From a virus (taxonomy: Duplodnaviria; Caudoviricetes), in the IMG/VR virus record IMGVR_UViG_3300012352_000420, positions 1-61,459 of that record: a stretch of DNA of 61,459 bases. One strand, given 5' to 3'. The notes below the pieces were generated by a model. The model saw only the letters and a program-made list of their open reading frames with translations. It was not told the origin of the DNA and ran no database searches. Position numbers and translations under genes: made by a program. Of this stretch, positions 3,001-55,531 are shown in pieces (the stretch's first letter is position 1; every line of letters starts with the position of its first letter).

Positions 3001-5249
3001 ATACTGCTATAGCTGCAATGCTTGGTGCATCAAGACCTTTAGTCGAATCAAAAGCTAGCGCAATATTCAGCAATAAGCCAAAGATTGTAGCAACAGAGAG
3101 CGAATCAATGAGACGCCGAAAAGATGGTGCAACCCCAGGCATTATTGAATATGACGGCTGGAGAATCCCTACATATACTGGCGGACCTTTTGAAGAGCAA
3201 ACAATTGTTTATCAAGGACTAGGTGAAGATTTTAGCGCTCTTCGTGGAAGAGTAAGTGCTGTTATCCCAACAAATGCAGCTGGATTACTTGGATACCTTG
3301 TTAAGAGAGAGCCAAATAATAAATACTTCAGCAACATGCTTAAGAATTTTGAAGCTGGACCAGAGTCATATGGTAAGGCAGAATACCAATTCATGACTAA
3401 GATGCTTGCAGCAAGCAGCTTTGGTGGAAGAAAAATATCTGGAAGCACAAAGATAAAAGAGCTCCCATCTGATATAGCAGAAGTTCTTAAGTTAGATAAA
3501 TATAAATATGATGTAAAGGACCTAACTGAAGATTCATCATTTAGCGAAATCCCATTTGTATTAAGAGAAAAATTGCAAAAAATGAATCTTAATAAGAATG
3601 AAACTTCTCAAAACTCAGAAACAGAAGGACTAACTCTTTTATTAGACTCTATGCTAGGTAACAAAACTGCTACCGCTCAATTGAATACCAGACTAAAACT
3701 TCTTTCACCAGAGCTTAAGGGTATAACTGGCAAGTATAAGTCAAGTATTGAAGAGGCTGCAGAGGCTTATAGAAGTAGAATGTCTGAGAGAGACATGAGA
3801 TGGTATGAAGATACTGGTCTAGATGAAATTCCTATGGTAAGGTCATATAACTATGGAATGAAGTTTGACGAGAATGGCAATGTTGTTGAAAATGCTGCAG
3901 GCTTTGAAATATTTAAGCACTTATTTAAAAAATCAAATAATCCAGATGACGCATACTCAAGATCTACAAGACACTGGACCGCATATGACGCAGTGCAGTC
4001 TTCAACTCAGCATGGAAATTCAAGTTGGGGAGAAGGCAATAAGATTGTAGTAACAACACTTAAGAATCTAATGAATGCAAATGGAAAGCCTGAAACATTG
4101 CATGCTGTAGATTCATGGTGGCTACAACAATTTGGAAAGCAATTTAAGGTTCCAAGAAAACAAGCGAGCATAGTTACTCCCTATGTAGATAAAGTTGCAT
4201 ATGCCAACATTTTGAAAAAACGAGGCCTATGGGAGCCTGGTAAACAACTGCCATTGATTGCTGAAGATCCAGCAACAAAGGAAGTTTTTTATCTAACGCA
4301 AAAGAAATATTCAAAGACAGACTTGGATCAAGTTTTAGCAGAATTTGAAAATGATAAGTTCCTTCCAGACATTAAAAAGCAGACTGGCCTAGAAAGAGGC
4401 CCGTGGGACTTTAAGATGGGAACTGGTGTCTTTGCAACAACTAGTGACCGTAATAGAAGCACCTATAGTGTTGAAAGAGCTCTTCAAATTGCTGCAATTA
4501 GACGTGCACAAAAGCAAATTGGAATAGATATTCCTTATAGAGAAATTACAGGAGGCTCTTTTGAGGGGCCAATGGAGAGCACTCTTAAAGATGTAGCAGC
4601 TAAGCATGGAATTAAATATAGTCCATTCCATAACAGTAGTAACCTAGGAGAGCTTGAAAAATCATCTAATACTAATCCATTAAGAAAATTAAATGAAGAT
4701 TACATGCCAGAAGGAACTCAAACGGGTACTGGTGCAATGGGTGCAGCACTTATGAGCATGCAATTTGGAAAATTCTCTAGCGGTAAATATAGAGCGTCAT
4801 ATTCTCCAGAAAATACTAGAATTCAAAATGTTGTAGGAGAATATATAAAAAGCTTTATGGCTTATAAGTATGGAGAATCTAAGACGCCTCCATCATACAG
4901 CATGTTCTTAAAAGATATTGAAAGAATTAAAGAAGATACTAGAGAGGCAAATCTGTTCTCAGGCGGAGGATATGTTGGAAATCAATCCATGAAATTGCCA
5001 AAGTTTGATCAAGGAATCAACCTTGTGCCACAAGATATGATGGCTCTTATCCATAAAAATGAAGCGGTTGTTCCAGCCAGCATGAACCCCTTTAATCCTA
5101 ACGCTAATAATGCTACAATGGGTGGAGCTCAATACAATGTAAATGTAACACTAAATGGCTCTAGCATTGATGCAGACGATGTTGCTAGAGTAATTACAAG
5201 AGAATTAAAGATTCGTGAGTCTATGAATGGAAGGTCGGTGATTAGATAA
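1..5249 (+). CDS. Tape measure protein (5'-truncated; first in-window ATG at 78) with C-terminal cargo segments
   Basis: Long ORF, Ala/Lys/Glu-rich helical N-part. Carries the TMP-type block GGKVSGPGTSTSDSIPAMLSDGEYVI and C-terminal LPKFDQG...ALIHKNEAVVP...YNVNVTLNG. Directly upstream of tail genes. Confidence 0.85.
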   Translation, partial: VEGFNNIDSSRVDSYAASLKAQFVGMGMSASDATNQIYAIIKASDKANQALGAISAKSFKSIQTTAQGVAFMVKALNKELNSQDFNAEEYGTGVDTLLNSLYAYQDGLIGTKTKTGEIIDETDALKMALDKVVKIEGSRTTLSEDQLESLKEQNVVYGSILGKNENLRSITAKILMYNAGLGEIVDLSQMGAQEAVKMANNLKVVQDAMNAITIKTTDDNPLSPLARLRNSAKLQSEESQKALKKLKEVDEDYYNDKIENHQKIIEKIEEETAARLKLLDVEQKRVDYESELAGAKLRYEQAIANGDMAQAAREQLTINKIMSDRQRQLTSQSITDKAEKDKKAQQEEINELQKQLKSAKEGYSAITAKASSDLAAYQVYEDYMNRFEAIAIRNIGKKSLGSDDKKEMAVLLQEMIDAGGKLKEAALAIKADYPATTTTTITANGPVATTQPGDWMNGLINQLKAASKSVSDGKFSTAVANFAAAVEKFAGQTSTNAPAKDQQQDVPWYEQRPGVSIGEDISYIHFVFKNKKYSASIGSKDWEDAFADAQNIGAKNISWNKYRKEGWTDAAYDGISRDKPFEGLQYTKKASGGMVQHFEPGGKVSGPGTSTSDSIPAMLSDGEYVIKADSVKKYGVDTFEALNTQRFASGGSVRRKLSSSHVSSSKINNEFVTQTQINEMLAERGMDPSKFKDRSRKLPSKVTPELIAKIMSAGAKQGSLASYQQMAISAMKGSERNQDFMLKHLNDATAMNMPNWNLPGSYAYLAREMAGSGRSKDFIREKLGLASNIYVPGKFASGGSVGSSKGKSSIDKTYMNEIKKRFKKDGSSMPYIPGTSIVPDSREFFAYMNLANGGYIQKFGSGGMASTPHDKGMQWGVGNKKKSIWQKAYDNFIFPTVLSADRVQSAFTGTNPIASTNLKMYADWEAKGKKDGFMSMMGAAAPTILMDLASLITPIALGNSLGRGFIEQYGISKGIPGLGSLLPKGSIPFATKGITTTLKNTAIAAMLGASRPLVESKASAIFSNKPKIVATESESMRRRKDGATPGIIEYDGWRIPTYTGGPFEEQTIVYQGLGEDFSALRGRVSAVIPTNAAGLLGYLVKREPNNKYFSNMLKNFEAGPESYGKAEYQFMTKMLAASSFGGRKISGSTKIKELPSDIAEVLKLDKYKYDVKDLTEDSSFSEIPFVLREKLQKMNLNKNETSQNSETEGLTLLLDSMLGNKTATAQLNTRLKLLSPELKGITGKYKSSIEEAAEAYRSRMSERDMRWYEDTGLDEIPMVRSYNYGMKFDENGNVVENAAGFEIFKHLFKKSNNPDDAYSRSTRHWTAYDAVQSSTQHGNSSWGEGNKIVVTTLKNLMNANGKPETLHAVDSWWLQQFGKQFKVPRKQASIVTPYVDKVAYANILKKRGLWEPGKQLPLIAEDPATKEVFYLTQKKYSKTDLDQVLAEFENDKFLPDIKKQTGLERGPWDFKMGTGVFATTSDRNRSTYSVERALQIAAIRRAQKQIGIDIPYREITGGSFEGPMESTLKDVAAKHGIKYSPFHNSSNLGELEKSSNTNPLRKLNEDYMPEGTQTGTGAMGAALMSMQFGKFSSGKYRASYSPENTRIQNVVGEYIKSFMAYKYGESKTPPSYSMFLKDIERIKEDTREANLFSGGGYVGNQSMKLPKFDQGINLVPQDMMALIHKNEAVVPASMNPFNPNANNATMGGAQYNVNVTLNGSSIDADDVARVITRELKIRESMNGRSVIR
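1941..2405 (+). repeat. 21-nt direct repeat TTTGCAAGTGGYGGATCCGTA (1941-1961, 2385-2405), encoding FASGGSV
   Basis: Seen directly; one mismatch between copies. Confidence 0.9.
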
Positions 5250-35033: not shown

Positions 35034-35510
35034 GTGAACGATAAATATCTTTTCAGTTCTTTAAAAGAATTACAGTCTAACTTAATTGTATTCTCCCATT
35101 TAGTACAGGGATTTTACTGGAACACCGAGTCTGTTCTTATGAGACAGTCAAGAATAATTTATGAAGAGATGTATAGGGAATCTGCAAAGAATGTAGATGT
35201 GGTTGCTATCTGGCTTAGGAGACTAGGCCAGGAAGCACCGTATACTCTTGAAGAGTTTGCATTAAATCAAACACTTGGAGATGTAAAGCCAGACACTTAT
35301 TGCGGTGTTGAAATGGCGGTACATTTAGAGCCAATCAATCGAAGAATGATCAATGATATTAAGTTCATCATAGATCAATCTATTCTCAATAAGGAGCATG
35401 GTTTAGCTAAAGACCTTTCAGATCTTTTGTCTACTCATCAAGAGTGGAATTGGTTCCTCAGCTCAAGCCTAAAGTTACCACCAAATCCATGGAAGTCTTT
35501 AAAGGACTAA
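35034..35510 (+). CDS. Dps/ferritin-like protein (degenerate ferroxidase site)
   Basis: GFYWNT...EEMY...DVVAIWLRRLG...HQEWNWFLSS aligns by eye with Dps helices. Confidence 0.65.
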   Translation: MNDKYLFSSLKELQSNLIVFSHLVQGFYWNTESVLMRQSRIIYEEMYRESAKNVDVVAIWLRRLGQEAPYTLEEFALNQTLGDVKPDTYCGVEMAVHLEPINRRMINDIKFIIDQSILNKEHGLAKDLSDLLSTHQEWNWFLSSSLKLPPNPWKSLKD

Positions 35511-43765: not shown

Positions 43766-43999
43766 ATGCTACATTTAAATACACGGGGAGTTGAAGTATT
43801 TATCTCTCGATATAAAAATAACTACAGAGATTCTTTCTGGGAGAACTATGACCTGATCATTTGGGATAAAAGCCCAAGTGGTTTTAGTGATCAAAAGGGT
43901 TTGTTTAGAAAGAATTCATGGGGAATATCCAATAGATTCGAAGTTAACAACGAAGGGATCTGGGTGTTACCAGTTAAATATGTTAAACATTTTAGATAG
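43766..43999 (+). CDS. Hypothetical protein
   Basis: SD AGAGGA; Trp-rich 77 aa. Confidence 0.7.
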   Translation: MLHLNTRGVEVFISRYKNNYRDSFWENYDLIIWDKSPSGFSDQKGLFRKNSWGISNRFEVNNEGIWVLPVKYVKHFR

Positions 44000-44291
44000 C
44001 CTTGGTGTAGATGAAGAAAATATTCAATGGTTCCACCTTGCAGCATGTCAGGGTATGCCAACGGATCTATTCTTTGATCAATACGAGAATGATGTAAACA
44101 TAGCAAAGAATATTGATGAGGCATGTCTTTCGTGTCCGATTATATCTATGTGCTATGAGTCTGGAATTGAGAACAACGAGTACGGAGTTTGGGGCGGAGT
44201 TTATCTAAGCTCTGGATCCATAGATAAGAATAAGAACTTGCATAAGACTCCAGAAGTATGGAAGAGATTGAAGAGGAAAAATGTTCATTGA
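43980..44291 (+). CDS. whiB: WhiB-family transcription factor
   Basis: AACQG...DLFF...CLSCP....C...YGVWGG. Confidence 0.88.
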   Translation: MLNILDSLGVDEENIQWFHLAACQGMPTDLFFDQYENDVNIAKNIDEACLSCPIISMCYESGIENNEYGVWGGVYLSSGSIDKNKNLHKTPEVWKRLKRKNVH

Positions 44292-46487: not shown

Positions 46488-47420
46488 ATGAACAAAAAAC
46501 TAATCGTGGCTCTATTAGCCCTAACAATCACACTACCAACTACTGCAAATGCAGCGCTTAAGTCTTCTACTGTACAGAAGCCAACAATTGCAATTCTAGA
46601 CACAGCACTAGATGCATCTGTACCAGAATTTGCTGGACGAATTACTCATGAGGTTTGTATCCTTGAGTGGACAACATGTCCAAACGGAACTAGCTATATG
46701 GAGGGTCCAGGAGCGGGCTTGACTTATCCAGCAACCTTTACATCTAATAAGACATTTAATCACGGAACACAGATGGTTTCAGCAGCAATTAGATCAAACC
46801 CTAATGTCAACATTGTGTTTGTAAGAATTATTGGAAATACTCTTAGGGGAGAGCGACAGATTGCTAATGAGCGAACTGTATATAATGCCCTTAACTGGGT
46901 GGCAGCCAATGCATCTAAGTATAATATTAAAGCAGTCGCTATGGCTCAGGGACATCATAACCTAACTCCACTAGCAGACTATTGCCCTAATACTCCAAAC
47001 ACAAAGACATCAATTATTAATCTTAAGAACATGAACATCCCTACATTCTTTTCAGCAGGCAATGGTCGTGACTACAAGAGAATCGATTGGCCTTCATGCA
47101 TTAACGAGTCTGTATCAGTAGGTGCAGTAGATCAGTATAATGAGATTGCAATCTATTCAAATGCAGATGCAAATAGAGTAGACTTCTATGCTCTTGGACA
47201 CATGAGAGTATTGCTTCCAGGTGGAGTAGAGGCAAATGCTGCTGGAACATCAGTTTCAGCACAGGTGGCAGCAGCTAACTGGGTTGCCCTATCAACTGCA
47301 AAGCCAACACTTTCTTATGATCAACTGTACTCTCTTTTCGACAAGACACACATCAAGACCATGAGTGGTAAGGTTCCTTTTGGTAAGCTTATGAACTTGG
47401 CTGGTGCCATTAATGGATAG
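46488..47420 (+). CDS. Secreted subtilisin-like serine protease (S8)
   Basis: Signal peptide; IAILDT, NHGT, SAGN, AGTS catalytic motifs. Confidence 0.88.
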   Translation: MNKKLIVALLALTITLPTTANAALKSSTVQKPTIAILDTALDASVPEFAGRITHEVCILEWTTCPNGTSYMEGPGAGLTYPATFTSNKTFNHGTQMVSAAIRSNPNVNIVFVRIIGNTLRGERQIANERTVYNALNWVAANASKYNIKAVAMAQGHHNLTPLADYCPNTPNTKTSIINLKNMNIPTFFSAGNGRDYKRIDWPSCINESVSVGAVDQYNEIAIYSNADANRVDFYALGHMRVLLPGGVEANAAGTSVSAQVAAANWVALSTAKPTLSYDQLYSLFDKTHIKTMSGKVPFGKLMNLAGAING

Positions 47421-47622
47421 TAAGCAGACCGTACTTGAAGGCATTATTGAAGATGTCGCTACAGATCTATACAATAAGTGGGTGGCAGCAATGCCAGAAG
47501 AAGATAAGAATGAGATAGCATTTCAGGCTTTATCTAAGAATGCACATGAAACTACCCTATTTGTTGTTCAAAACTTCATGAATAAGTTTAATGATGCAGC
47601 AGAAGCCTTGAAGGGCGAGTAA
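47413..47622 (+). CDS. Hypothetical protein
   Basis: ORF track; start probably at MDSK. Confidence 0.65.
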   Translation: MDSKQTVLEGIIEDVATDLYNKWVAAMPEEDKNEIAFQALSKNAHETTLFVVQNFMNKFNDAAEALKGE

Positions 47623-47628
47623 TAAATA

Positions 47629-47931
47629 ATGATACTCGATAGTAACAACTTCGATGCCTTTATATCTACAAATAAAACTGCTATAATAGACTTCTGGGCT
47701 ACCTGGTGTGGTCCCTGTAAAAAGATGAAGCCTATTCTCGAAGAGGTCGAATCTGAATTCAATGTTGTGATTGGAAGGGTTGATGCGGATGAATCTGCAG
47801 ATATTGCTTCTAAGTATAACGTGTCTTCAATACCAACAATCATAGTGCTTGAAGATGGAGTTCCAGTTAAAACAATTATTGGAGCAATGCCAAAGCATAA
47901 GTTAGTTAAGGAGCTTGAAGGATGGATTTAG
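47629..47931 (+). CDS. trxA: Thioredoxin
   Basis: DFWATWCGPCK, SIPT. Confidence 0.95.
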   Translation: MILDSNNFDAFISTNKTAIIDFWATWCGPCKKMKPILEEVESEFNVVIGRVDADESADIASKYNVSSIPTIIVLEDGVPVKTIIGAMPKHKLVKELEGWI

Positions 47932-48092
47932 ATTTTGAATCATGGATGAAGTATGGTTATGATAAGGGATGGATATCTGATGTGTTTTGCAACACTCATG
48001 ACGGTGGCCCTATGTCAGATGAAGAAATGCAGGAATGGGAGGAAGGCGGAGATCCGTGTTCATTCCATGTTAGAATAAACGAACTAAACTAG
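47922..48092 (+). CDS. Hypothetical protein, 56 aa (not in ORF track)
   Basis: MDLDFESWMKYGYDKGWISDVFCNTHDGGP...GGDPCSFHVRI; C/H/C/H could bind metal. Confidence 0.7.
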   Translation: MDLDFESWMKYGYDKGWISDVFCNTHDGGPMSDEEMQEWEEGGDPCSFHVRINELN

Positions 48093-48140
48093 AATTCTGT
48101 GCTCACGTAAGAGGCAGAGGAAATAAGGAGAATAAATTAA

Positions 48141-49130
48141 ATGAACTCATTTAAGAAAATCGCAGTAGGTGTAGTTGCAGCTATGTCTATCGCAACAATC
48201 GTAGCTACACCTGCTAGTGCAGCAACAACAACTCTAACAGTAGGCGGATCGTCAGTTTCAACTGGCCTTGTTGCTTCTAATCCAGTTGTTTTGCCAGTAC
48301 CAGCAGACAACTCAGTTGATTCAGCAGATGCTCTCAAGATCGCAGTAACAGGTCTTGATACAGGCACAGTAGTTTCAGCATCAGCAACAAATGCATCAAT
48401 TGTTCCAGCATTGGCAACAGTTGCAGCACCTGTATCTGCATCAGCAGGAACAGCAACACTTTCAATTAATACAGGAACAGGCACAACAGCTGACTTCTAT
48501 GTATTTACAAAGACAGTTAACGCAGGAACAGTAGTAGTTACTGTCGGCGGAAACACAACTACATATTACATCAAGGGATCTGCTGGAGCAGCATACAACC
48601 TATCAGTTGTAGCGCCAGATTCAGCTAACATCTCAACAGTAAATAAGGTTTATGCAAAGACCACAGACGTTTTTGGAAACCCAGTTGTCACAACAACACC
48701 AACAATTACAGCAATCAACGCAGTTGTTGGAGCAGTATCTGTTTCAGATACAGCAACAGGAACATTTGCTTTTGATCTTACAGCACCAGCATCAGTTGGT
48801 CAGACAGGTCTTTCAGTAGCAATTACAGCAACAGACGTTGCTGGTCTTCCAGCAGCAGCTAAGTCTGCTACAAAGTTTGTTGCGATTGCAAATCCAGCAG
48901 ACGTACTAGCATCACTTAAGGCAGAGCTTGCAGCAGCACAGGCTGCTCTTGCAGCTGAAAAGAATGCACACGCAGTAACAAAGGCAGCAGTCGATAAGGC
49001 AGCAGCAGATGCAGTTACAGCAAAGGCAGCAGCAGATCTCGCAGCAGCAGCTTACAAGGCAGAGTACAACGCTCTTGCTAAGAAGTGGAATGCTAAGAAT
49101 CCAAAGGCTAAGGTTGCACTAAAGAAGTAA
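48141..49130 (+). CDS. Secreted Ala/Thr/Val-rich surface (S-layer-like) protein
   Basis: Signal peptide ending PASA, beta-rich Ig-like middle, C-terminal coiled coil and basic KKWNAKNPKAKVALKK; strong SD; strongly biased codons. Confidence 0.7.
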   Translation: MNSFKKIAVGVVAAMSIATIVATPASAATTTLTVGGSSVSTGLVASNPVVLPVPADNSVDSADALKIAVTGLDTGTVVSASATNASIVPALATVAAPVSASAGTATLSINTGTGTTADFYVFTKTVNAGTVVVTVGGNTTTYYIKGSAGAAYNLSVVAPDSANISTVNKVYAKTTDVFGNPVVTTTPTITAINAVVGAVSVSDTATGTFAFDLTAPASVGQTGLSVAITATDVAGLPAAAKSATKFVAIANPADVLASLKAELAAAQAALAAEKNAHAVTKAAVDKAAADAVTAKAAADLAAAAYKAEYNALAKKWNAKNPKAKVALKK

Positions 49131-49140
49131 TTCTTTAAAT

Positions 49141-49172
49141 AAAGGGGCAGGATCTTAGGGTCTTGCCCCTTT
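49141..49172 (+). terminator. Intrinsic terminator
   Basis: AAAGGGGCAGGATC-TTAG-GGTCTTGCCCCTTT. Confidence 0.8.
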
Positions 49173-49197
49173 ATCATTTAAATGCTAGACTTGATAC

Positions 49198-49398
49198 ATG
49201 GAATCAACTAAAAGAACATTATTAAAAACATTAAGCTGGGAAACATTTCACCTAGTAGGAGTTGCTGGAGTAATCTACATTTTTACTGGTGAGTGGGAGT
49301 ATGCAAGCCTAGGAGCCCTCATCTATATTGGGTGGGAAGCAACAGGCTACTTCTTGCATGAAAGAGTGTGGGCTAAGTTTGGTGGAAGATTAAAGTGA
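49198..49398 (+). CDS. DUF2061-like small membrane protein
   Basis: ESTKRTLLKTLSW...YFLHERVW; TGCTAGACT 6 nt before ATG. Confidence 0.8.
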   Translation: MESTKRTLLKTLSWETFHLVGVAGVIYIFTGEWEYASLGALIYIGWEATGYFLHERVWAKFGGRLK

Positions 49399-49532
49399 AT
49401 GAGTTTGAGTTATATAAGCAGGCATTTAAGAACAACTTGATTAAAGAGATTCAAGAACTAGAGATTCCATATGAGTGGAGCTCTAAAGATATTATTAGAT
49501 TTATTATTAAAAAGATTGAAAATGGTAACTAA
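49395..49532 (+). CDS. Hypothetical protein, 45 aa (not in ORF track)
   Basis: GTGA overlap; MNEFELYKQAFKNNLIKEIQELEIPYEW... Confidence 0.55.
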   Translation: MNEFELYKQAFKNNLIKEIQELEIPYEWSSKDIIRFIIKKIENGN

Positions 49533-49534
49533 TA

Positions 49535-49651
49535 TTGGTTGATAAGTGCGACATTCAAGGGTGTCAAAATGAAGCTGAAAGAATAACAACTTCAGAGACT
49601 AAATACATCTACATATGCGTTAGTTGTTATAATAAAAAGTATAAGGTTTGA
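49535..49651 (+). CDS. Small four-Cys protein, 38 aa (TTG start; not in ORF track)
   Basis: MVDKCDIQGCQNEAERITTSETKYIYICVSCYNKKYKV; ends 1 nt before the radical SAM gene. Confidence 0.5.
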   Translation: MVDKCDIQGCQNEAERITTSETKYIYICVSCYNKKYKV

Positions 49652-49652
49652 T

Positions 49653-50642
49653 ATGATAAAGGCAGTTCAGATAGATGTTAATGGTCTATGTAACGCTGGA
49701 TGCTGGTTTTGCCCAGTCTCTTATGAAGGAAATCCAGCCTCTGCTAGAAGAGATATGACAATACAAGAGCTTGAGTCTATATTAATACAGCTCTCTGAAG
49801 GCATGGGAGACTTTGTTGATCCAGAGCTTAGAGTAATATATACAGCTAACTACAATGAAGTACTACTATACAAGCACTTTGAAGAAATGCTGGGCGTGTA
49901 TAGAAAGCATGGATTCAAGATCAATATCCTGACAAATGGAGTGGCCTTAACAAAATCTAAAGTAGATTTAATAAAACAAAACGTAGACATAATAAACGGA
50001 ATGCTTCTTAACATCCCTTCTGGCGATAAAGCAAGATGGTCTAAGTATGTCAATATGAATGAAAAGTTATTTGATAAGGTAGTCTCAAATACAAGATACG
50101 CTATCGAGTCCATTCCAGAGCTAATTGAAAGAGACGCATTTCATCTTATGATCAATGGACTAAATGAGAAGTCCTTGGTCGAAAATGGAGGATGGCTTGA
50201 TATACTTAGCGGAGCACCAGACTTAGATCTAAATGTTGAAAGCGGAAGCCTGGCTAATGAAACAAAACTACTTACTGAATTGTTTCCAGAGCTATCTATT
50301 TTCCCTGCCTACCATCTATATGACAGGGCTGGTCATCTAGAAGACTTTAATATTATAGGTCAGTCTAATGCCATATCTAAATACTTAAAAGCGGGAAACT
50401 CTAAGGTGATAGGATGTAATGGCGGGATAGGCTTTAGAAGTAGAACAGAAGAGTGGATCCATGTAAACCCAAATGGTGATCTATTTATATGTTGTGCAGA
50501 TTTTGATTTTAAAACCGTATTCGGTAACGTTTTTTCAGAAAGTTTGAAGGATATTTGGTACGGACAAAAGAGACAAGATGCGATATCTGAGTCTTACTCC
50601 AACATGTGCACAAAATGTTCAGCTGCTATATGGGGTAATTAA
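49653..50642 (+). CDS. Radical SAM enzyme with SPASM/twitch domain
   Basis: CNAGCWFC, ILTNG, C-terminal C...IHVNPNGDLFICC...FGNV...LKDIW...CTKC. Confidence 0.9.
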   Translation: MIKAVQIDVNGLCNAGCWFCPVSYEGNPASARRDMTIQELESILIQLSEGMGDFVDPELRVIYTANYNEVLLYKHFEEMLGVYRKHGFKINILTNGVALTKSKVDLIKQNVDIINGMLLNIPSGDKARWSKYVNMNEKLFDKVVSNTRYAIESIPELIERDAFHLMINGLNEKSLVENGGWLDILSGAPDLDLNVESGSLANETKLLTELFPELSIFPAYHLYDRAGHLEDFNIIGQSNAISKYLKAGNSKVIGCNGGIGFRSRTEEWIHVNPNGDLFICCADFDFKTVFGNVFSESLKDIWYGQKRQDAISESYSNMCTKCSAAIWGN

Positions 50643-50720
50643 ATGTGTTGGATATGTGGCTGTGCTGATCATGTAGGGCCAGGTAATGAAAAAGAGGATA
50701 AAGATGAAGAACGAAACTAA
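50643..50720 (+). CDS. 25-aa MCxxCGC peptide (not in ORF track)
   Basis: MCWICGCADHVGPGNEKEDKDEERN; ATG directly abuts the radical SAM stop codon. Confidence 0.6.
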   Translation: MCWICGCADHVGPGNEKEDKDEERN

Positions 50721-51762
50721 TCTAATACATTTAGGTAGACCAAATCCTGGACCAGATGTAGGAATGAATAGCTCAGTATCATTAAACTCAACACTGCATG
50801 CTGGCGGAGACATAGGGTATGCAAGATACGGCAATCAGTCATGCTTGGATTTAGAGAATACTATTGCATCTTTAGAGCATGGAAAGACATTAGCTTTTTC
50901 ATCTGGCATGTCTGCATTTAATGCAATAGCTTCAAATATACCCCATGGGTCTATCATCGTAGCATCAGATCAAGGTTATGCTGGAATTACAGAGACACTT
51001 AGAAGAATGCATCAAGATGGAAAGATCGTACTTAGATTTGTGGATATAGCAAACGCAGCAGAAGTTTTGCACAACATGAATGATGCGTTCATGGTTTGGA
51101 TTGAAACTCCAACTAATCCATTATTAAAAATTGCTGACTTAAAGAAAATAATTAGATCTGCTAAAGAGACAAATGTTTTAGTCGGAGTCGACAATACATT
51201 TGCGACACCATTAAGGCAGGTTCCACTAGATATGGGTGCAGATATATCGTTAAACTCAGTAACAAAATATATGGCTGGGCATTCAGATGTATTAGCAGGA
51301 TCGATATCAACTAATAGCAAACTAATCTTTGATAAAATAGAATTTACCAGAAAAATATCTGGCACAATTATTCAGCCATTTGAAGCTTACCTAGCCTTAC
51401 GTGGCATGAGAACATTTAGCTTAAGATTTGAAAAGGCTGAGAAGAATGCCAAGGCTTTGGTTGATCTTTTATCCAGCAATGAGCATATTAAAAAGGTATA
51501 TTACCCAGGATTTAGCGGAGTCATATCTTTTGATATCCATGGCACTCCAGAGGATGCCGATGTCATATGCAATTCTGCTAGATTAATTGCAAATACCACC
51601 AGCCTAGGAGCTGTAGAATCAACATGGGAAAGAAGAAGGCGGTGGCAGCTAGAAAGCCATACTGTCCCAGAGACATTAATTAGGCTTTCAGTAGGATGTG
51701 AAGATATAGAAGATCTATGGGTAGATATTAAAAATGCCCTGGAATACGTAAAAATGATATAA
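50704..51762 (+). CDS. Cys/Met metabolism PLP enzyme (cystathionine gamma-synthase/lyase)
   Basis: YARYGN, FSSGMSA, ETPTNP, VDNTFATP, SVTKYMAGHSD, SLG, RLSVGCED; SD GAGGA before 50704. Confidence 0.92.
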   Translation: MKNETNLIHLGRPNPGPDVGMNSSVSLNSTLHAGGDIGYARYGNQSCLDLENTIASLEHGKTLAFSSGMSAFNAIASNIPHGSIIVASDQGYAGITETLRRMHQDGKIVLRFVDIANAAEVLHNMNDAFMVWIETPTNPLLKIADLKKIIRSAKETNVLVGVDNTFATPLRQVPLDMGADISLNSVTKYMAGHSDVLAGSISTNSKLIFDKIEFTRKISGTIIQPFEAYLALRGMRTFSLRFEKAEKNAKALVDLLSSNEHIKKVYYPGFSGVISFDIHGTPEDADVICNSARLIANTTSLGAVESTWERRRRWQLESHTVPETLIRLSVGCEDIEDLWVDIKNALEYVKMI

Positions 51763-51794
51763 TATATTGATAAGCGGATTACTAGTCCCGCTTA
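51755..51794 (+). promoter_or_regulatory. Extended -10 promoter plus leader hairpin
   Basis: TGATATAAT (TATAAT at 51758-51763); TAAGCGG...CCGCTTA at 51771-51794. Confidence 0.55.
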
Positions 51795-51819
51795 AATAAA
51801 AACCTATAGGAGAAATAAA

Positions 51820-51933
51820 ATGACAACAAACAACGTTCCACCAGTGAATTACACAGAGGCTCCAAAGCCAGCATTCCCTGCAACAGACAAGTCATCACAA
51901 GACAGCTCAGGTCTTGGTAACGGCGGTAAGTAA
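51820..51933 (+). CDS. 37-aa peptide (not in ORF track)
   Basis: Strong SD AGGAGA; MTTNNVPPVNYTEAPKPAFPATDKSSQDSSGLGNGGK. Confidence 0.7.
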   Translation: MTTNNVPPVNYTEAPKPAFPATDKSSQDSSGLGNGGK

Positions 51934-51935
51934 TA

Positions 51936-52100
51936 ATGTGCACAATGTGTGGATGTGGCAAAGAAGCCTTTATGGGCGAAGAAATGCCAAATCAAAATGT
52001 ATATGATGTAGGTCCAGGACTATTAGATTCACCATCAATGTTCGGGACAGATTCCATGAACAACCTTGGAGTCTCAAGAACAGAAATGGACATGAATTAA
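51936..52100 (+). CDS. 54-aa MCxxCGC peptide (not in ORF track)
   Basis: MCTMCGCGKEAFMGEEMPNQNVYDVGPGLLDSPSMFGTDSMNNLGVSRTEMDMN; coupled to both neighbours. Confidence 0.7.
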   Translation: MCTMCGCGKEAFMGEEMPNQNVYDVGPGLLDSPSMFGTDSMNNLGVSRTEMDMN

Positions 52101-52315
52101 TGTCAGAAAATGGAACTGGAATGGCAAGTCCAGGAAATGGCGAAGCCTCAGGTGCCTTAACTTCAAGAGAAGCAACAACAAAGTCACCATCACAAGGTAA
52201 GTTTAGATCAGGATTTGCAGGACCAAAGCCAGCTATTAAGGTGGATACCAATAAGCATGGTATTCGTAGAGAAGTTAATCTAAATCCACCTAAGAAGACA
52301 GGCAAGAAAAAGTAA
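52100..52315 (+). CDS. Small basic disordered protein
   Basis: Gly/Pro/Lys-rich 71 aa; TAATG overlap. Confidence 0.65.
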   Translation: MSENGTGMASPGNGEASGALTSREATTKSPSQGKFRSGFAGPKPAIKVDTNKHGIRREVNLNPPKKTGKKK

Positions 52316-52328
52316 TTCAAGTAGTAAT

Positions 52329-52352
52329 CAAATAGCCCGCAAGGGCTATTTG
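52329..52352 (+). terminator. Intrinsic terminator
   Basis: CAAATAGCCC-GCAA-GGGCTATTTG. Confidence 0.8.
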
Positions 52353-52365
52353 TATTTATAGAGTA

Positions 52366-52400
52366 TTGACTAACCAGCATTAAAATTATATAATAGATAC
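52366..52400 (+). promoter_or_regulatory. Promoter TTGACT-17-TATAAT, leaderless
   Basis: -10 at 52389-52394, 6 nt before ATG 52401. Confidence 0.8.
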
Positions 52401-53159
52401 ATGATTATTCAAATTATCGGTTTACCAGGTTCTGGAAAGACAGCATTAGCTAAAAGGTTAGCTGATAGAATTAATGCAATCCATCTTAATGGTGATGAGA
52501 CTAGGGCTACTGTTAACTCAGACTTAGGATTTAGTATTGAAAGTAGAATTGAGCAAGCACGTAGGTTAGGTGAGCTTGCAAGACTTATTAATAAGCAGGG
52601 TCATCATGTAGTAGTTGATTTTGTATGCCCAACAAAGGTCACACGTAACTCATTTGGCAGCCCAGATGTATTAATCTTTATGGATACAATTGAGTCTGGT
52701 AGATTTAAAGATACAAACGATATGTTCGAAAAGCCAGAAAGTGCAGACGAGGTATTTGTAAATCATGGATTAGATCCAGATGAGAAAGCAAAATATATAA
52801 TTAAACAGTTTAATCTGCATGATTGGTATGAGCCAACTACTCTCATGCTTGGCAGATATCAGCCATGGCATGCTGGACACCATGCATTATATGATGAGGC
52901 TGGCAAGCGAACAGAGCAGGTAGTTCTTGGAGTTAGAAGTACATACAATACTTCGCCAAAGGACCCTCTTACATTTGAGCAGGTCAAGGTATTTATTGAT
53001 CAGGATGAGCATATGAAGAATGCTATGGTCGTTAAGATGCCTAATATTACCAATATTGTATATGGTCGTGATGTAGGGTATAAGATTGAGCAGGTTAAGT
53101 TAGGGGATGAGATTGAAGCTATTAGCGCTACTCAAAAGCGTAAAGAGATGGGCCTCTAG
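52401..53159 (+). CDS. cysC: Adenylylsulfate kinase fused to an HxGH nucleotidyltransferase domain
   Basis: GLPGSGKT, LNGD..R...DLGFS...R, FEKP; C-domain LGRYQPWHAGH...ISAT. Confidence 0.8.
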   Translation: MIIQIIGLPGSGKTALAKRLADRINAIHLNGDETRATVNSDLGFSIESRIEQARRLGELARLINKQGHHVVVDFVCPTKVTRNSFGSPDVLIFMDTIESGRFKDTNDMFEKPESADEVFVNHGLDPDEKAKYIIKQFNLHDWYEPTTLMLGRYQPWHAGHHALYDEAGKRTEQVVLGVRSTYNTSPKDPLTFEQVKVFIDQDEHMKNAMVVKMPNITNIVYGRDVGYKIEQVKLGDEIEAISATQKRKEMGL

Positions 53160-53218
53160 TTTTTTTCTAGAGAATAACCTCGGAGATGTCGAAGAAAGAT
53201 TCTACTTTGGAGATAAAA

Positions 53219-53422
53219 ATGAAAGTAACAAAGGCTAGGTCCTTTGCCAAGGCTTTAAGTTATCGAATTTGGGGAACCCTATCTTCATTCATAGTGGCAT
53301 ATATTCTAACTGAAGATGCCACATTATCTGGAGCAATAGCATTCTGGGAAACAGTAGTTAAGATATTTATTTACTATGCACATGAGCGTGGATGGAATTA
53401 TATTCAGTGGGGAAGAAAATGA
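53219..53422 (+). CDS. DUF2061-like small membrane protein
   Basis: RSFAKALSYRIWGT...YYAHERGWNYIQWG. Confidence 0.85.
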   Translation: MKVTKARSFAKALSYRIWGTLSSFIVAYILTEDATLSGAIAFWETVVKIFIYYAHERGWNYIQWGRK

Positions 53423-54108
53423 CAATTAATGTATTAGACAAAGGTTATGTTAGATTAGTTGATGTAATGGGAGATGACCTATCAATCGTCAATGCTGCTC
53501 GTGTTTCATATGATAAAGAGTCTTATGAGTTTACAGAAAAAGACAAGGGGCTGCTAAGGTTTTTATGGAAAGAAGATCATACCTCACCATTTAGACATGC
53601 CTCAGTATCATTTGAGATTTATGCCCCTCTATTTGTTGCAAGACAGTGGTGGAAGTATGCTGTAGCATCAACTCATATCGATGATCAGAATGGCTGGAAT
53701 GAGTCCTCTAGACGCTATATAACAGAGGATGAGGAGTTCTACATACCAAAGGGCTCAGAATGGCGTTCAAAGCCTGAGAACTCAAAGCAGGGCTCAGGAG
53801 AGCCATTAGATGATTCTGTAGGCGGTTGGTTTACTAATAAACTATTTGATGTTGCAGAACAAGGGAATAATCTTTACAAGGAAGCACTAGAGGCTGGAAT
53901 TGCACCAGAGCAGGCACGTCTATTCTTGCCAGCGTACGGAATGTATGTTAGATGGAGATGGACTACAAGCCTTCATGGACTAATGCATTTCCTTAATCAA
54001 AGATTAAAGGGGGATGCCCAGTCTGAGATTAGAGACTATGCAGAAGCAGTCAAGCAATTAACTGAAGATAAGTTTTCAGAGACATTTAAGGTTGTATTCA
54101 ATGACTGA
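53419..54108 (+). CDS. thyX: Flavin-dependent thymidylate synthase
   Basis: AARVSY, HTSPF, ARQW, NESSRRY, EQARLFLP, AQSEIR. Confidence 0.93.
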   Translation: MTINVLDKGYVRLVDVMGDDLSIVNAARVSYDKESYEFTEKDKGLLRFLWKEDHTSPFRHASVSFEIYAPLFVARQWWKYAVASTHIDDQNGWNESSRRYITEDEEFYIPKGSEWRSKPENSKQGSGEPLDDSVGGWFTNKLFDVAEQGNNLYKEALEAGIAPEQARLFLPAYGMYVRWRWTTSLHGLMHFLNQRLKGDAQSEIRDYAEAVKQLTEDKFSETFKVVFND

Positions 54109-54324: not shown

Positions 54325-54484
54325 TAAGATATCAGCTATACTAGATTTAATTAAAAGAAATACAATTTGTAAGGCTAGAGGACACAATTTAGCTTATGCA
54401 GGAAGTTGTCCATACACAGGAGCAACTTATGATTATTGTGAAACATGTCACCACATGGTTCCACGAGAGGAAGTTTATGATTAA
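54317..54484 (+). CDS. Small Cys/His protein
   Basis: CKARGH...CPYTG...CETC. Confidence 0.65.
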   Translation: MNDKISAILDLIKRNTICKARGHNLAYAGSCPYTGATYDYCETCHHMVPREEVYD

Positions 54485-54776
54485 GCCATCAGGAGGTCTA
54501 GTTTTAATTAAGCAGGAAGAGGTCACAGATACTACAACAAAGTCTGGATTAGTTTTAGCTGCATCATTTAATAGCCAAGGCCCTAAGAAGGGCAAGGTTA
54601 TTGATTTAGGTACAGGGGAGCCAAACGCATTGAATGGTGAGATCATTCATATCCCAGACTTTAAGGTAGATGACACAGTTATTTATCCAGATCATTCTGG
54701 ACACGAAGTAGAAGATGAAGACGGCACAAAGTACCTATTGGTACACTACAAGCATATCCTTGGAAAGGTTATTTAA
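54477..54776 (+). CDS. groES: Co-chaperonin GroES
   Basis: MIKP..GLVLIK...TTKSGLVL...GKVIDLGTG...KVDDTVIY...ILG; SD GAGG before 54477. Confidence 0.85.
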   Translation: MIKPSGGLVLIKQEEVTDTTTKSGLVLAASFNSQGPKKGKVIDLGTGEPNALNGEIIHIPDFKVDDTVIYPDHSGHEVEDEDGTKYLLVHYKHILGKVI

Positions 54777-54949: not shown

Positions 54950-55531
54950 ATGAAAATATTTGGGGTTAGCCTAGGTAGAAATGGAACACAGTCTCTTAGC
55001 AAATTTTTAAGAGATCAGGGTTTTAGTGTAACTCATTTTTATGACTATCAGATACTAAAGCTCGGTGAGTTTGAAGAGAGCTTGGACGGCATTTTAAAGC
55101 ATTTTCATGCTATACCAGATACAGACGCATATATAGATATACCAACCTGCTTTGTATTTGATGTAATGTACGATACGTTCCCAGATGCTAAGTTTATTAA
55201 TATAGTAAGACCAATAGACGACTGGCTTGCATCTATGGAAAAGATTAATCGTATGCATGCTCATGAAGGAGAACCGTACGCATTTGAAGAGACATACTGT
55301 AATTTCTATGAAAATACTGGAAAGAAAAAGATCCAGGATTTAACTAAGGATGAGCTTAGGTTTATTGGCATGTACCACCTTACCAAGGTTCGTGACTTCT
55401 TTAAGGATAAAGATAACTACTTAGAAGTCTCCCTTCATGATCCAGAAATTGCTATTAAGATTAAAGAGTTTGTTGGAGGAACTTTAGATATAGAGTTCCC
55501 ATGGGAAGATAAGATTGGCGCTATAGAATGA
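54950..55531 (+). CDS. Sulfotransferase-family protein
   Basis: KIFGVSLGRNGTQSL (5'-PSB-like loop), DIP, FPDAKFINIVRPIDDWLASM, EFPW. Confidence 0.75.
   Translation: MKIFGVSLGRNGTQSLSKFLRDQGFSVTHFYDYQILKLGEFEESLDGILKHFHAIPDTDAYIDIPTCFVFDVMYDTFPDAKFINIVRPIDDWLASMEKINRMHAHEGEPYAFEETYCNFYENTGKKKIQDLTKDELRFIGMYHLTKVRDFFKDKDNYLEVSLHDPEIAIKIKEFVGGTLDIEFPWEDKIGAIE

Follow-up and report, generated by a model that had tools for sequence, protein, structure and literature searches.

Two elements of a freshwater phage locus, a micro-protein operon and a radical SAM cassette, share an N-terminal MCxxCGC module that may bind metal

Positions 49,535–52,315 of the virus record IMGVR_UViG_3300012352_000420 (Duplodnaviria; Caudoviricetes), whose whole stretch of 61,459 nucleotides is called the window here, raise the question of whether a radical S-adenosylmethionine (SAM) enzyme, a pyridoxal 5′-phosphate (PLP) enzyme, and the small Cys-rich open reading frames (ORFs) around them belong to one peptide-modifying system. 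The initial annotation had proposed that two micro-peptides beginning with MCxxCGC, here named pepA and F, were either substrates of the enzyme, in the manner of ribosomally synthesized and post-translationally modified peptides (RiPPs), or stand-alone metal chelators, and it had placed a four-Cys ORF in the same system. Both MCxxCGC ORFs, the four-Cys ORF, and the radical SAM and PLP genes were recovered as annotated (Table 1). Our analysis favors two separate elements, the orf37–F–orf71 operon and a radical SAM–pepA–PLP cassette, which would share one N-terminal module; the tagged products would be metal-binding micro-proteins, and pepA would be the dedicated partner of the enzyme. We consider this reading about evenly balanced between right and wrong.

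Table 1. Positions of the features of the locus in the window and the evidence for each
Feature	Coordinates	Strand	Evidence
Four-Cys (CxxxC...CxxC) zinc-ribbon-like ORF, 38 amino acids	49535-49651	+	weak DUF7685 match, E 0.002, below cut-off
Accessory cassette (radical SAM, pepA, PLP), ~2.1 kb	49609-51751		absent from close relative L112
Radical SAM enzyme, 329 amino acids	49653-50642	+	Pfam Radical_SAM E 5e-10, SPASM E 2.6e-11
pepA, 25 amino acids, MCWICGCADHVGPG...	50643-50720	+	ATG directly after radical SAM TAA stop
Cys/Met-metabolism PLP enzyme (cystathionine gamma-lyase/synthase family)	50686-51762	+	PF01053 E 8.5e-82
Extended -10 element TGATATAAT, overlapping PLP stop codon	51755-51763	+	TGnTATAAT invariant in 34 sequences
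7-bp hairpin with CTAG-containing loop	51771-51794 (51771-77 pairs with 51788-94)	+	covariation
AGGAG ribosome-binding site in invariant CCTATAGGAG	51808-51812	+	invariant columns, alignment A5
orf37, first micro-protein, 37 amino acids	51820-51933	+	homologues upstream of F in related loci
F, 54-amino acid micro-protein, MCTMCGCG N-terminus, core EMPNQNVYDVGPG	51936-52100	+	117 relative clusters
orf71, basic micro-protein, 71 amino acids	52100-52315	+	ATG overlaps F stop codon
Intrinsic-terminator-like hairpin after orf71	52329-52352	+	10-bp stem, then T-rich tail

Translating the window in all six frames gave two occurrences of MCxxCGC; 300 first-order Markov resamples gave none. The ratio of nonsynonymous to synonymous differences (pN/pS, Nei–Gojobori) confirmed that the two MCxxCGC ORFs are real genes under purifying selection: it was 0.09 over codons 1–16 of pepA (pS 0.82; 22 distinct DNA sequences); for F it was 0.18 in codons 1–13 and 0.35 over the full length. 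The window pepA is shorter than most of its relatives, which have 32–34 residues. The conserved portion of the peptide is MCWxCGCADHxGxGN, and among 18 distinct sequences M1, C2, W3, C5, G6, C7, A8, H10, and G12 were invariant and D9 was nearly so. A profile search among 1.84 billion proteins returned only 15 representatives of pepA, all of 30–54 residues and none of them fused to another protein. The relatives share a conserved C-terminal NQLNDII that is not present in the window pepA. Since the same DNA was found where pepA is absent (L107, L112), NQLNDII is the predicted promoter region of the downstream operon read as protein, and the functional part of pepA is its first 15–16 residues; the window agrees with this, as the tail of its pepA is replaced by the overlapping PLP gene. 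NQLNDII was accordingly rejected as a follower or recognition sequence. Also rejected were a read-through fusion of the radical SAM gene with pepA, which is in frame in the window and in other frames in L003 and L004, and a likeness of pepA to the zinc knuckle (CCHC), for which no Pfam match was obtained at E ≤ 0.1. The internal VGPG, at first taken as a feature shared by the two peptides, is present in both window peptides and is not conserved in their families (Pro in 9 of 18 pepA sequences; GATG in 5 of the 22 distinct F loci), so it was discarded as a functional motif.

The occurrence of pepA was compared with that of the radical SAM gene at 77 viral-contig loci carrying relatives of the enzyme, 33 of them at 59–84% identity to the window enzyme and 44 at 34–50%. 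In an exact scan, 32 of the 33 closer loci had one to four MCxxCGC ORFs each, the remaining locus (L077) being cut by the contig end, and no MCxxCGC ORF was found at any of the 44 distant loci. Of the 32 loci of the enzyme clade (at least 59% identity) that could be evaluated, 31 had pepA itself. The exact pepA DNA pattern was found on 29 viral contigs, every one with the radical SAM gene, and a further 13 contigs carried both. Over the 46 evaluable contigs of this clade (the 32 evaluable loci, 12 new contigs from the PLP scan, L115, and the window), pepA accompanied the enzyme in 45. The sole exception, L011 (2340-2420), has an intact enzyme gene and a deletion of the Cys-rich N-terminus of pepA, with only ...VDPNQLNDIIDS left, which is promoter DNA. 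The pair was seen in two gene contexts, either behind a zinc ribbon or ferritin-like gene and ahead of the F unit, or (group II) between a TylF-like methyltransferase and a sulfotransferase, and the pairing persisted even with the PLP gene between the two.

pepA was linked more loosely to the PLP gene than to that of the radical SAM enzyme. Searching with a PLP-enzyme profile gave 42 viral loci; all 26 loci examined at at least 60% identity carried the radical SAM enzyme and pepA within 6 kb, 12 of them on new contigs, and the other 16 were at 26–35%. The PLP gene was found in at least four placements, namely overlapping the tail of pepA (as in the window), between the enzyme and pepA, after a 2-oxoglutarate (2OG) oxygenase, and after orf71. 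The PLP-binding Lys, K194 within SVTKY, was invariant in 8 homologues. The top NCBIfam match was cystathionine gamma-lyase at 271.6 bits versus a 440-bit cut-off, and no equivalog cut-off of NCBIfam was attained by the PLP enzyme.

The boundaries of the cassette were defined by comparison with L112. In the blastn alignment, the window and L112 were homologous over 47001-49608 and 51752-52312, with no homology in between, and the flanks were 88–94% identical (thioredoxin, 98%; F, 100%). Because L112 lacks 49609-51751, the radical SAM–pepA–PLP stretch is an accessory cassette. Contigs from four freshwater DNA runs cover the cassette region. Two contigs in X4 (likeness threshold 85) join 49135 to 51814 and 49382 to 51802 with sides of 36 and 23 letters; with sides so short and this threshold, they are weak hints only of cassette-less relatives.

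The conservation of F does not depend on the radical SAM gene. The F core MPNQNVYDVG was found on 32 viral contigs, and by tblastn all 32 loci had F together with orf71, mostly preceded by orf37; only 2 had the radical SAM and PLP genes. The enzyme gene could be judged in 27 of these loci, where a backbone marker (zinc ribbon, DUF2061, or Ala/Thr-rich protein) lies contiguously upstream, and 25 of the 27 were without it; in the other 5, the contig ends next to F and the presence of the enzyme is not evaluable. The expected co-occurrence of peptide and enzyme therefore held for pepA and failed for F. The four-Cys ORF was detected by tblastn in 19 of the 32 F loci, 17 of them without the radical SAM gene, so its place in the system proposed by the initial annotation is not supported; judged by its distribution, it is a backbone gene outside the cassette.

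Relatives of F formed 117 clusters in a collection of 5.8 billion proteins. The start was MCxxCGC in 55 clusters, was called from the second Met (MCGC...) in 46, and from Met13 in 12; 1 cluster had an upstream extension and 3 had a Cys-free N-terminus. In the latter (P0087, P0114, and P0116), MG[AT]TYQGDNFGLG stands in place of MCxxCGC and the EMPNQNVYDVGPG core is kept. F started with MCxxCGC in all 31 further DNA loci. The MCVECGC... peptides of other relatives are taken as divergent F, as they occupy the F position and share an EE..MHE...EDID C-terminal tail. The ESM Atlas returned only unnamed viral clusters for F, and no family match was found for orf37 in Pfam, NCBIfam, or PHROGs; in PHROGs, none of the nine small ORFs tested had a family. 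Consecutive reading frames in orf37–F–orf71 either overlap or directly adjoin each other (TAATAATG and TAATG), so the three micro-proteins are probably made in equal amounts. This unit is a core operon of a freshwater, presumably actinobacterial, phage lineage. The window DNA was found in freshwater metagenomes, and the presence of WhiB (43878-44291) suggests that the host is an actinobacterium.

The three-gene unit had been annotated with its own promoter and terminator, and both were borne out. The predicted promoter is supported by the conservation of the extended -10 element across related loci: T14, G15, and T17-T22 (TG at 51755-6 and TATAAT at 51758-63) were invariant in 34 distinct sequences with and without the cassette, whereas a generic sigma-70 scan detected no promoter before 51820. 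A hairpin begins 7–8 nt past the -10 element, at or just after the predicted transcription start. In the alignment, 98.7% of the cells were paired and both sides changed in 5 of the 7 pairs; none of 500 shuffles matched the observed values, and slid controls were 22–50% paired. An A-rich spacer follows the hairpin, then CCTATAGGAG and the ATG of orf37, an arrangement common to the 34 aligned sequences. The element at 51754-51822 resembles the Rfam motif RF02980 (freshwater-2), which comes from freshwater metagenomes, in its hairpin, A-rich spacer, AGGAG, and AUG. However, it scored 26.8 bits against a gathering score of 49.9, and where the model has its first hairpin, the window has the -10 element; the 13 related loci also all scored below the gathering threshold of RF02980. 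The element may be a distant relative of freshwater-2 or a look-alike.

The N-terminal CxxCGC with Cys at residues 2, 5, and 7 had been compared with the high-affinity nickel site of HypB, and this comparison was upheld. In Escherichia coli HypB, Cys2, Cys5, and Cys7 of CxxCGC bind Ni(II) together with the N-terminal amine at picomolar affinity, and these cysteines sit in a disordered N-terminal extension (PMC12284835). In 18 phage peptides of five families, M1, C2, C5, G6, and C7 were invariant. Both window peptides matched HypB_prefix_1 (NF053667) at 18.4–18.7 bits and E 0.003–0.004, below the curated cut-off of 30 bits, and a six-frame search of the whole record with this model hit exactly the pepA and F places. 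At E ≤ 0.05, HypB_prefix_1 matched 7 of the 18 peptides and HypB_prefix_2 a single one, always at scores under the cut-off; no other NCBIfam family was matched by these 18. The AlphaFold2 (AF2) model of F had a pLDDT of 54 and no secondary structure, so that F, with Cys2/5/7 and Gly6 at its extreme N-terminus, is predicted to be disordered like the HypB extension. Unlike HypB, the phage peptides are stand-alone, with 25–69 residues and no GTPase domain; they are encoded by phages, with several paralogues per genome, and pepA has the additional invariant W3 and H10. Cys2/5/7 and His10 of pepA are a possible Cys3-His metal site.

The tag was not confined to pepA and F. It heads four peptide families (pepA, F, MCKDCGCG..., and the variant MCxxCG[DE]C) and also a 2OG-Fe(II) oxygenase in L020 and L030, the orthologue of which in L003 is without the extension of ~23 residues. 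MCK[DE]CGCG... peptides of 32–35 residues lie directly behind F, and MCxxCG[DE]CS... peptides of 27–29 residues lie in front of a 2OG oxygenase; members of the tag family, including the tagged oxygenase, are at L020:4012-4110, 4423-4512, and 4515-5231 and at L030:1457-1555 and 1848-2564. Up to four exact MCxxCGC ORFs and one variant-motif peptide were observed per locus. Most relatives have metal-related genes beside the cassette: 2OG-Fe(II) oxygenases and a ferritin-like PF00210 gene (156 residues, L004:3826-4296) that adjoins the radical SAM gene; the ferritin-like homologue of the window lies 14 kb away from the cassette (~35049, ORF 35034-35510). The HypB_prefix matches, the disorder of F, the modular use of the tag, and the metal-related neighbors together suggest that the motif is a metal-binding module.

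The radical SAM enzyme was characterized by its Cys residues, sequence matches, and predicted fold. The cluster motif CX3CX2C (C13, C17, and C20) was invariant in 34 homologues, as were all five Cys of the C-terminal domain (C255, C280, C281, C319, and C322). The assignment to radical SAM/SPASM was right in part. The Pfam Radical_SAM and SPASM models match, the latter covering residues 266–322 despite the five Cys, but a full SPASM domain has 7–8 Cys and two auxiliary clusters; the C-terminal domain is more likely twitch-like, with a C...GX4C...CXXC set fit for one auxiliary cluster. The C255-x24-C280 and C319-x2-C322 spacing fits the auxiliary-cluster pattern of BtrN and could hold one [4Fe-4S] cluster. 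The best sequence match among solved structures was BtrN (phmmer E 6.5e-8; two stretches, the top one at residues 4–107), followed by YydG at E 0.05. In the AF2 model (pLDDT 89.5), the 329 residues are fully taken up by the radical SAM core and the C-terminal domain. The top Foldseek matches were DesII, BtrN, anSME, the sactipeptide enzyme entries 5wgg/5why, BlsE, SuiB, EpeE, and SkfB, all at TM ~0.5; BtrN matched at E 1.6e-9 (TM 0.53/0.69), and anSME (E 1e-8) and the sactisynthases scored almost equally. The fold therefore cannot separate sugar-acting from peptide-acting enzymes. Weak NCBIfam matches to peptide maturases were also obtained, such as WgkB at E 4e-5. No Pfam or NCBIfam match to a RiPP recognition element (RRE) or PqqD-like domain was found in the enzyme or any neighboring ORF, and pepA has no leader, its first Cys being residue 2; both agree with the reservation that had been attached to the RiPP reading. 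A complex prediction of the L013 enzyme with L013 pepA, two 4Fe-4S clusters, and SAM scored 0.03, which is evidence neither way. A homologue of the enzyme with 62% identity (L138) was observed on a 10-kb contig in a Bacteroidota bin, from a metagenome-assembled genome (MAG) labelled Sediminibacterium; its flanks are phage-like (a methyltransferase, a sulfotransferase-like gene, an IMPDH/GMP-reductase-like gene, and a 2OG oxygenase), and it is probably a mis-binned phage contig.

In the reading that we favor, the operon (51755-52352) would express three translationally coupled micro-proteins under its own promoter, hairpin, strong ribosome-binding site (RBS), and terminator. F, predicted to be disordered, would chelate a soft metal (Ni, Zn, Fe, or Cu) with its N-terminal amine and three thiolates as ligands, and would act with orf37 and orf71 without needing the radical SAM enzyme. 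The cassette is inserted between the zinc-ribbon gene and the promoter of the three-gene unit. Within it, pepA would be translated by termination–reinitiation behind the enzyme and would serve as the dedicated partner of the enzyme, a metal-, Fe-S-, or electron-handling accessory acting through Cys2/5/7 and His10. The PLP enzyme would interconvert Cys and Met, feeding Fe-S clusters and SAM; the presumed host group is dependent on reduced sulfur. A parallel, with no sequence relationship expected, is Dph3, a small Cys4 metal protein and the dedicated electron donor of the radical-SAM-type Dph1-Dph2; there, too, a tiny Cys-rich protein that binds metal has a genetic tie to a single Fe-S radical enzyme. 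Unlike the Cys4 site of Dph3, pepA has three Cys and a His within 10 residues, and a redox role here would be by analogy.

Several points weigh against this reading. The 44 distant homologues of the enzyme are without an MCxxCGC ORF, so the enzyme family in general needs no such partner, and L011 keeps an intact enzyme gene though the N-terminus of its pepA is deleted. The HypB_prefix_1 matches reached 18–19 bits against the 30-bit cut-off, and 11 of the 18 peptides were unmatched at E ≤ 0.05. The Cys-free N-terminus of 3 of the 117 F clusters indicates that the tag is dispensable in some lineages. W3, H10, and the nearly invariant D9 are dispensable for HypB-type binding, and their conservation fits a substrate as well. 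Finally, the linkage is partly inherited synteny, being inside one phage lineage.

In the strongest alternative, the radical SAM enzyme would modify pepA as a substrate without a leader, making it a minimal RiPP or a peptide-derived cofactor, with F and the other MC-peptides as unmodified paralogues. MCWxCGCADH would then be cross-linked or oxidized, for example through a thioether between Cys and Asp9, a bond between Cys and Trp, or conversion of Cys to formylglycine, and would be recognized without an RRE, as in anSME. The strict adjacency and the co-occurrence in 45 of 46 contigs across two gene contexts would be expected of such a pair, and so would the constraint on W3, D9, and H10 beyond the Cys residues; the significant folds of peptide-modifying enzymes (anSME, 5wgg/5why) and the WgkB-type matches point the same way. 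The system resembles those of anSME, the sactipeptide and ranthipeptide synthases, and YydG/EpeE in having an auxiliary-cluster radical SAM enzyme beside a small Cys-rich ORF. Unlike those maturases, it is without a leader and an RRE, its enzyme has fewer auxiliary Cys, a set for one auxiliary cluster only, and pepA lies downstream of the enzyme gene and is translationally coupled to it instead of being a separately expressed upstream precursor. anSME requires a C-x-P-x-R motif in its substrates, and by inspection pepA has none. The apparent follower motif is promoter DNA, and paralogues that never encounter the enzyme keep the Cys motif. BtrN and DesII, which lead the sequence and fold matches, act on sugars, and distant homologues are fused or adjacent to glycosyltransferases. 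We consider this alternative possible and on the unlikely side. An accessory role of pepA appears slightly ahead of it, because the same motif occurs in paralogues without the enzyme, the gene is downstream and coupled, and neither leader nor RRE is present.

A second alternative takes the enzyme to be sugar-acting, as BtrN and DesII are, with a sugar or a protein-linked glycan as its substrate, and pepA to be an unrelated metal-binding micro-protein riding on its translation. BtrN was the best sequence match among solved structures, and DesII and BtrN lead the fold search. The window enzyme is like these twitch enzymes in its CX3CX2C motif, its Cys set for one auxiliary cluster, the lack of an RRE, and its short length; unlike them, it shows ~15% identity, carries the additional invariant Cys281, and is accompanied by a Cys-rich micro-peptide and a PLP enzyme, not by an aminoglycoside or deoxysugar pathway. 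The gene neighborhoods of the distant homologues also favor a sugar. In 19 of the 44 viral loci (L036, L038, L041, and 16 others, mostly marine-type viral contigs), a prolyl 4-hydroxylase (P4H)-like 2OG-Fe(II) oxygenase, the radical SAM enzyme, and a PF11397 N-acetylglucosamine (GlcNAc) transferase stand in a row, other distant homologues are flanked by different glycosyltransferases, and in a Syntrophorhabdaceae MAG (L151:3056-4924) the PF11397 transferase and the radical SAM enzyme are fused in one protein of 622 residues. These neighbors and the fusion suggest that the wider enzyme family is linked to glycosylation. The gene set of the distant loci resembles the hydroxyproline-GlcNAc pathway of Skp1, with an extra radical SAM step. 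In group II, TylF-like methyltransferases and sulfotransferases adjoin the enzyme. However, no glycosyltransferase was found beside the enzyme in the pepA clade or anywhere in the window, and pepA is kept with the enzyme in both contexts and was never seen without it; TM values of ~0.5 do not separate sugar-acting from peptide-acting enzymes. The pepA clade looks to have lost a glycosyltransferase neighbor and gained the peptide, and we regard action on a sugar with pepA as a passenger as improbable.

The idea of a single RiPP-like system, in which the radical SAM enzyme would serve both MCxxCGC peptides and the four-Cys ORF, draws on the common N-terminal motif and the closeness of the genes in the window, and we give it hardly any credence. 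F and the four-Cys ORF are kept in 25 and 17 loci, respectively, that lack the enzyme, the pattern that the initial annotation itself had named as refuting; F has its own promoter, hairpin, and terminator; and the cassette is an insertion relative to L112.

Other genes near the region were inspected. A sulfation theme was observed in the window (52401-53159, 49198-49398, 53186-53422, and 54950-55531), with an APS-kinase domain fused to a cytidylyltransferase/NMNAT-like domain, two DUF2061 membrane proteins, and a Sulfotransfer_4 protein. The APS-kinase fusion and the second DUF2061 gene (52313-53418) are a second insertion relative to L112. A subtilase (Peptidase_S8) is encoded at 46488-47420 and an Ala/Thr-rich protein of 329 residues without a family at 48141-49130, both with a signal-peptide-like N-terminus by eye; the gene of the Ala/Thr-rich protein is a conserved backbone gene beside thioredoxin in all relatives. 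A GroES-like Cpn10 lies at 54396-54776, and the ORF at 53392-54108 was taken as ThyX by eye. The 61-kb virus record is incomplete, 57% complete by CheckV, and encodes tail genes, a terminase, a DnaB-like helicase, and a large DNA polymerase. Among INPHARED phages, neither a DNA nor a tblastn match to the window was found.

Among the papers listed in our literature searches, none described CxxCGC peptides of phages or a radical SAM–pepA–PLP cassette, and none dealt with a set of radical SAM, GlcNAc, and Skp1/prolyl hydroxylase-type enzymes in bacteria or phages. The main text of a study of freshwater phages (PMC6802176) names ferritin, thioredoxin, and 3′-phosphoadenosine 5′-phosphosulfate (PAPS) reductase and mentions no radical SAM, cystathionine, or sulfotransferase genes, and the terms sought for these genes were all absent from PMC10202952. 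From what the sequences indicate, the locus would hold known kinds in new form: a HypB-type site as stand-alone phage micro-proteins, and a radical SAM–micro-peptide–PLP cassette without leader or RRE.

However tempting it is to see one RiPP cluster in the locus, the distribution data correct that view. The cassette is a small test case of an RRE-less radical SAM enzyme and a leaderless Cys-rich peptide, with three genes and a peptide of 16 residues, and either role of pepA, if true, would be a kind of radical SAM–peptide partnership undescribed so far. The conserved promoter–hairpin–RBS unit likely drives high expression of three micro-proteins in uncultured actinophages. A wider proposal, which we hold tentatively and think rather doubtful as a whole, is that phages of the most abundant freshwater actinobacteria carry HypB-mimic micro-proteins for metal capture or hand-over, and that pepA, an RRE-less twitch radical SAM enzyme, and a transsulfuration-type PLP enzyme form a mobile module in which the leaderless 16-residue N-terminus of pepA would either become a cross-linked metal-binding or redox-active peptide or act as the private metal or electron donor of the enzyme. 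If true, the metal-handling micro-proteins of these phages would be copies of the tip of a host metallochaperone, and one 7-residue module would have been reused across several peptides and an oxygenase.

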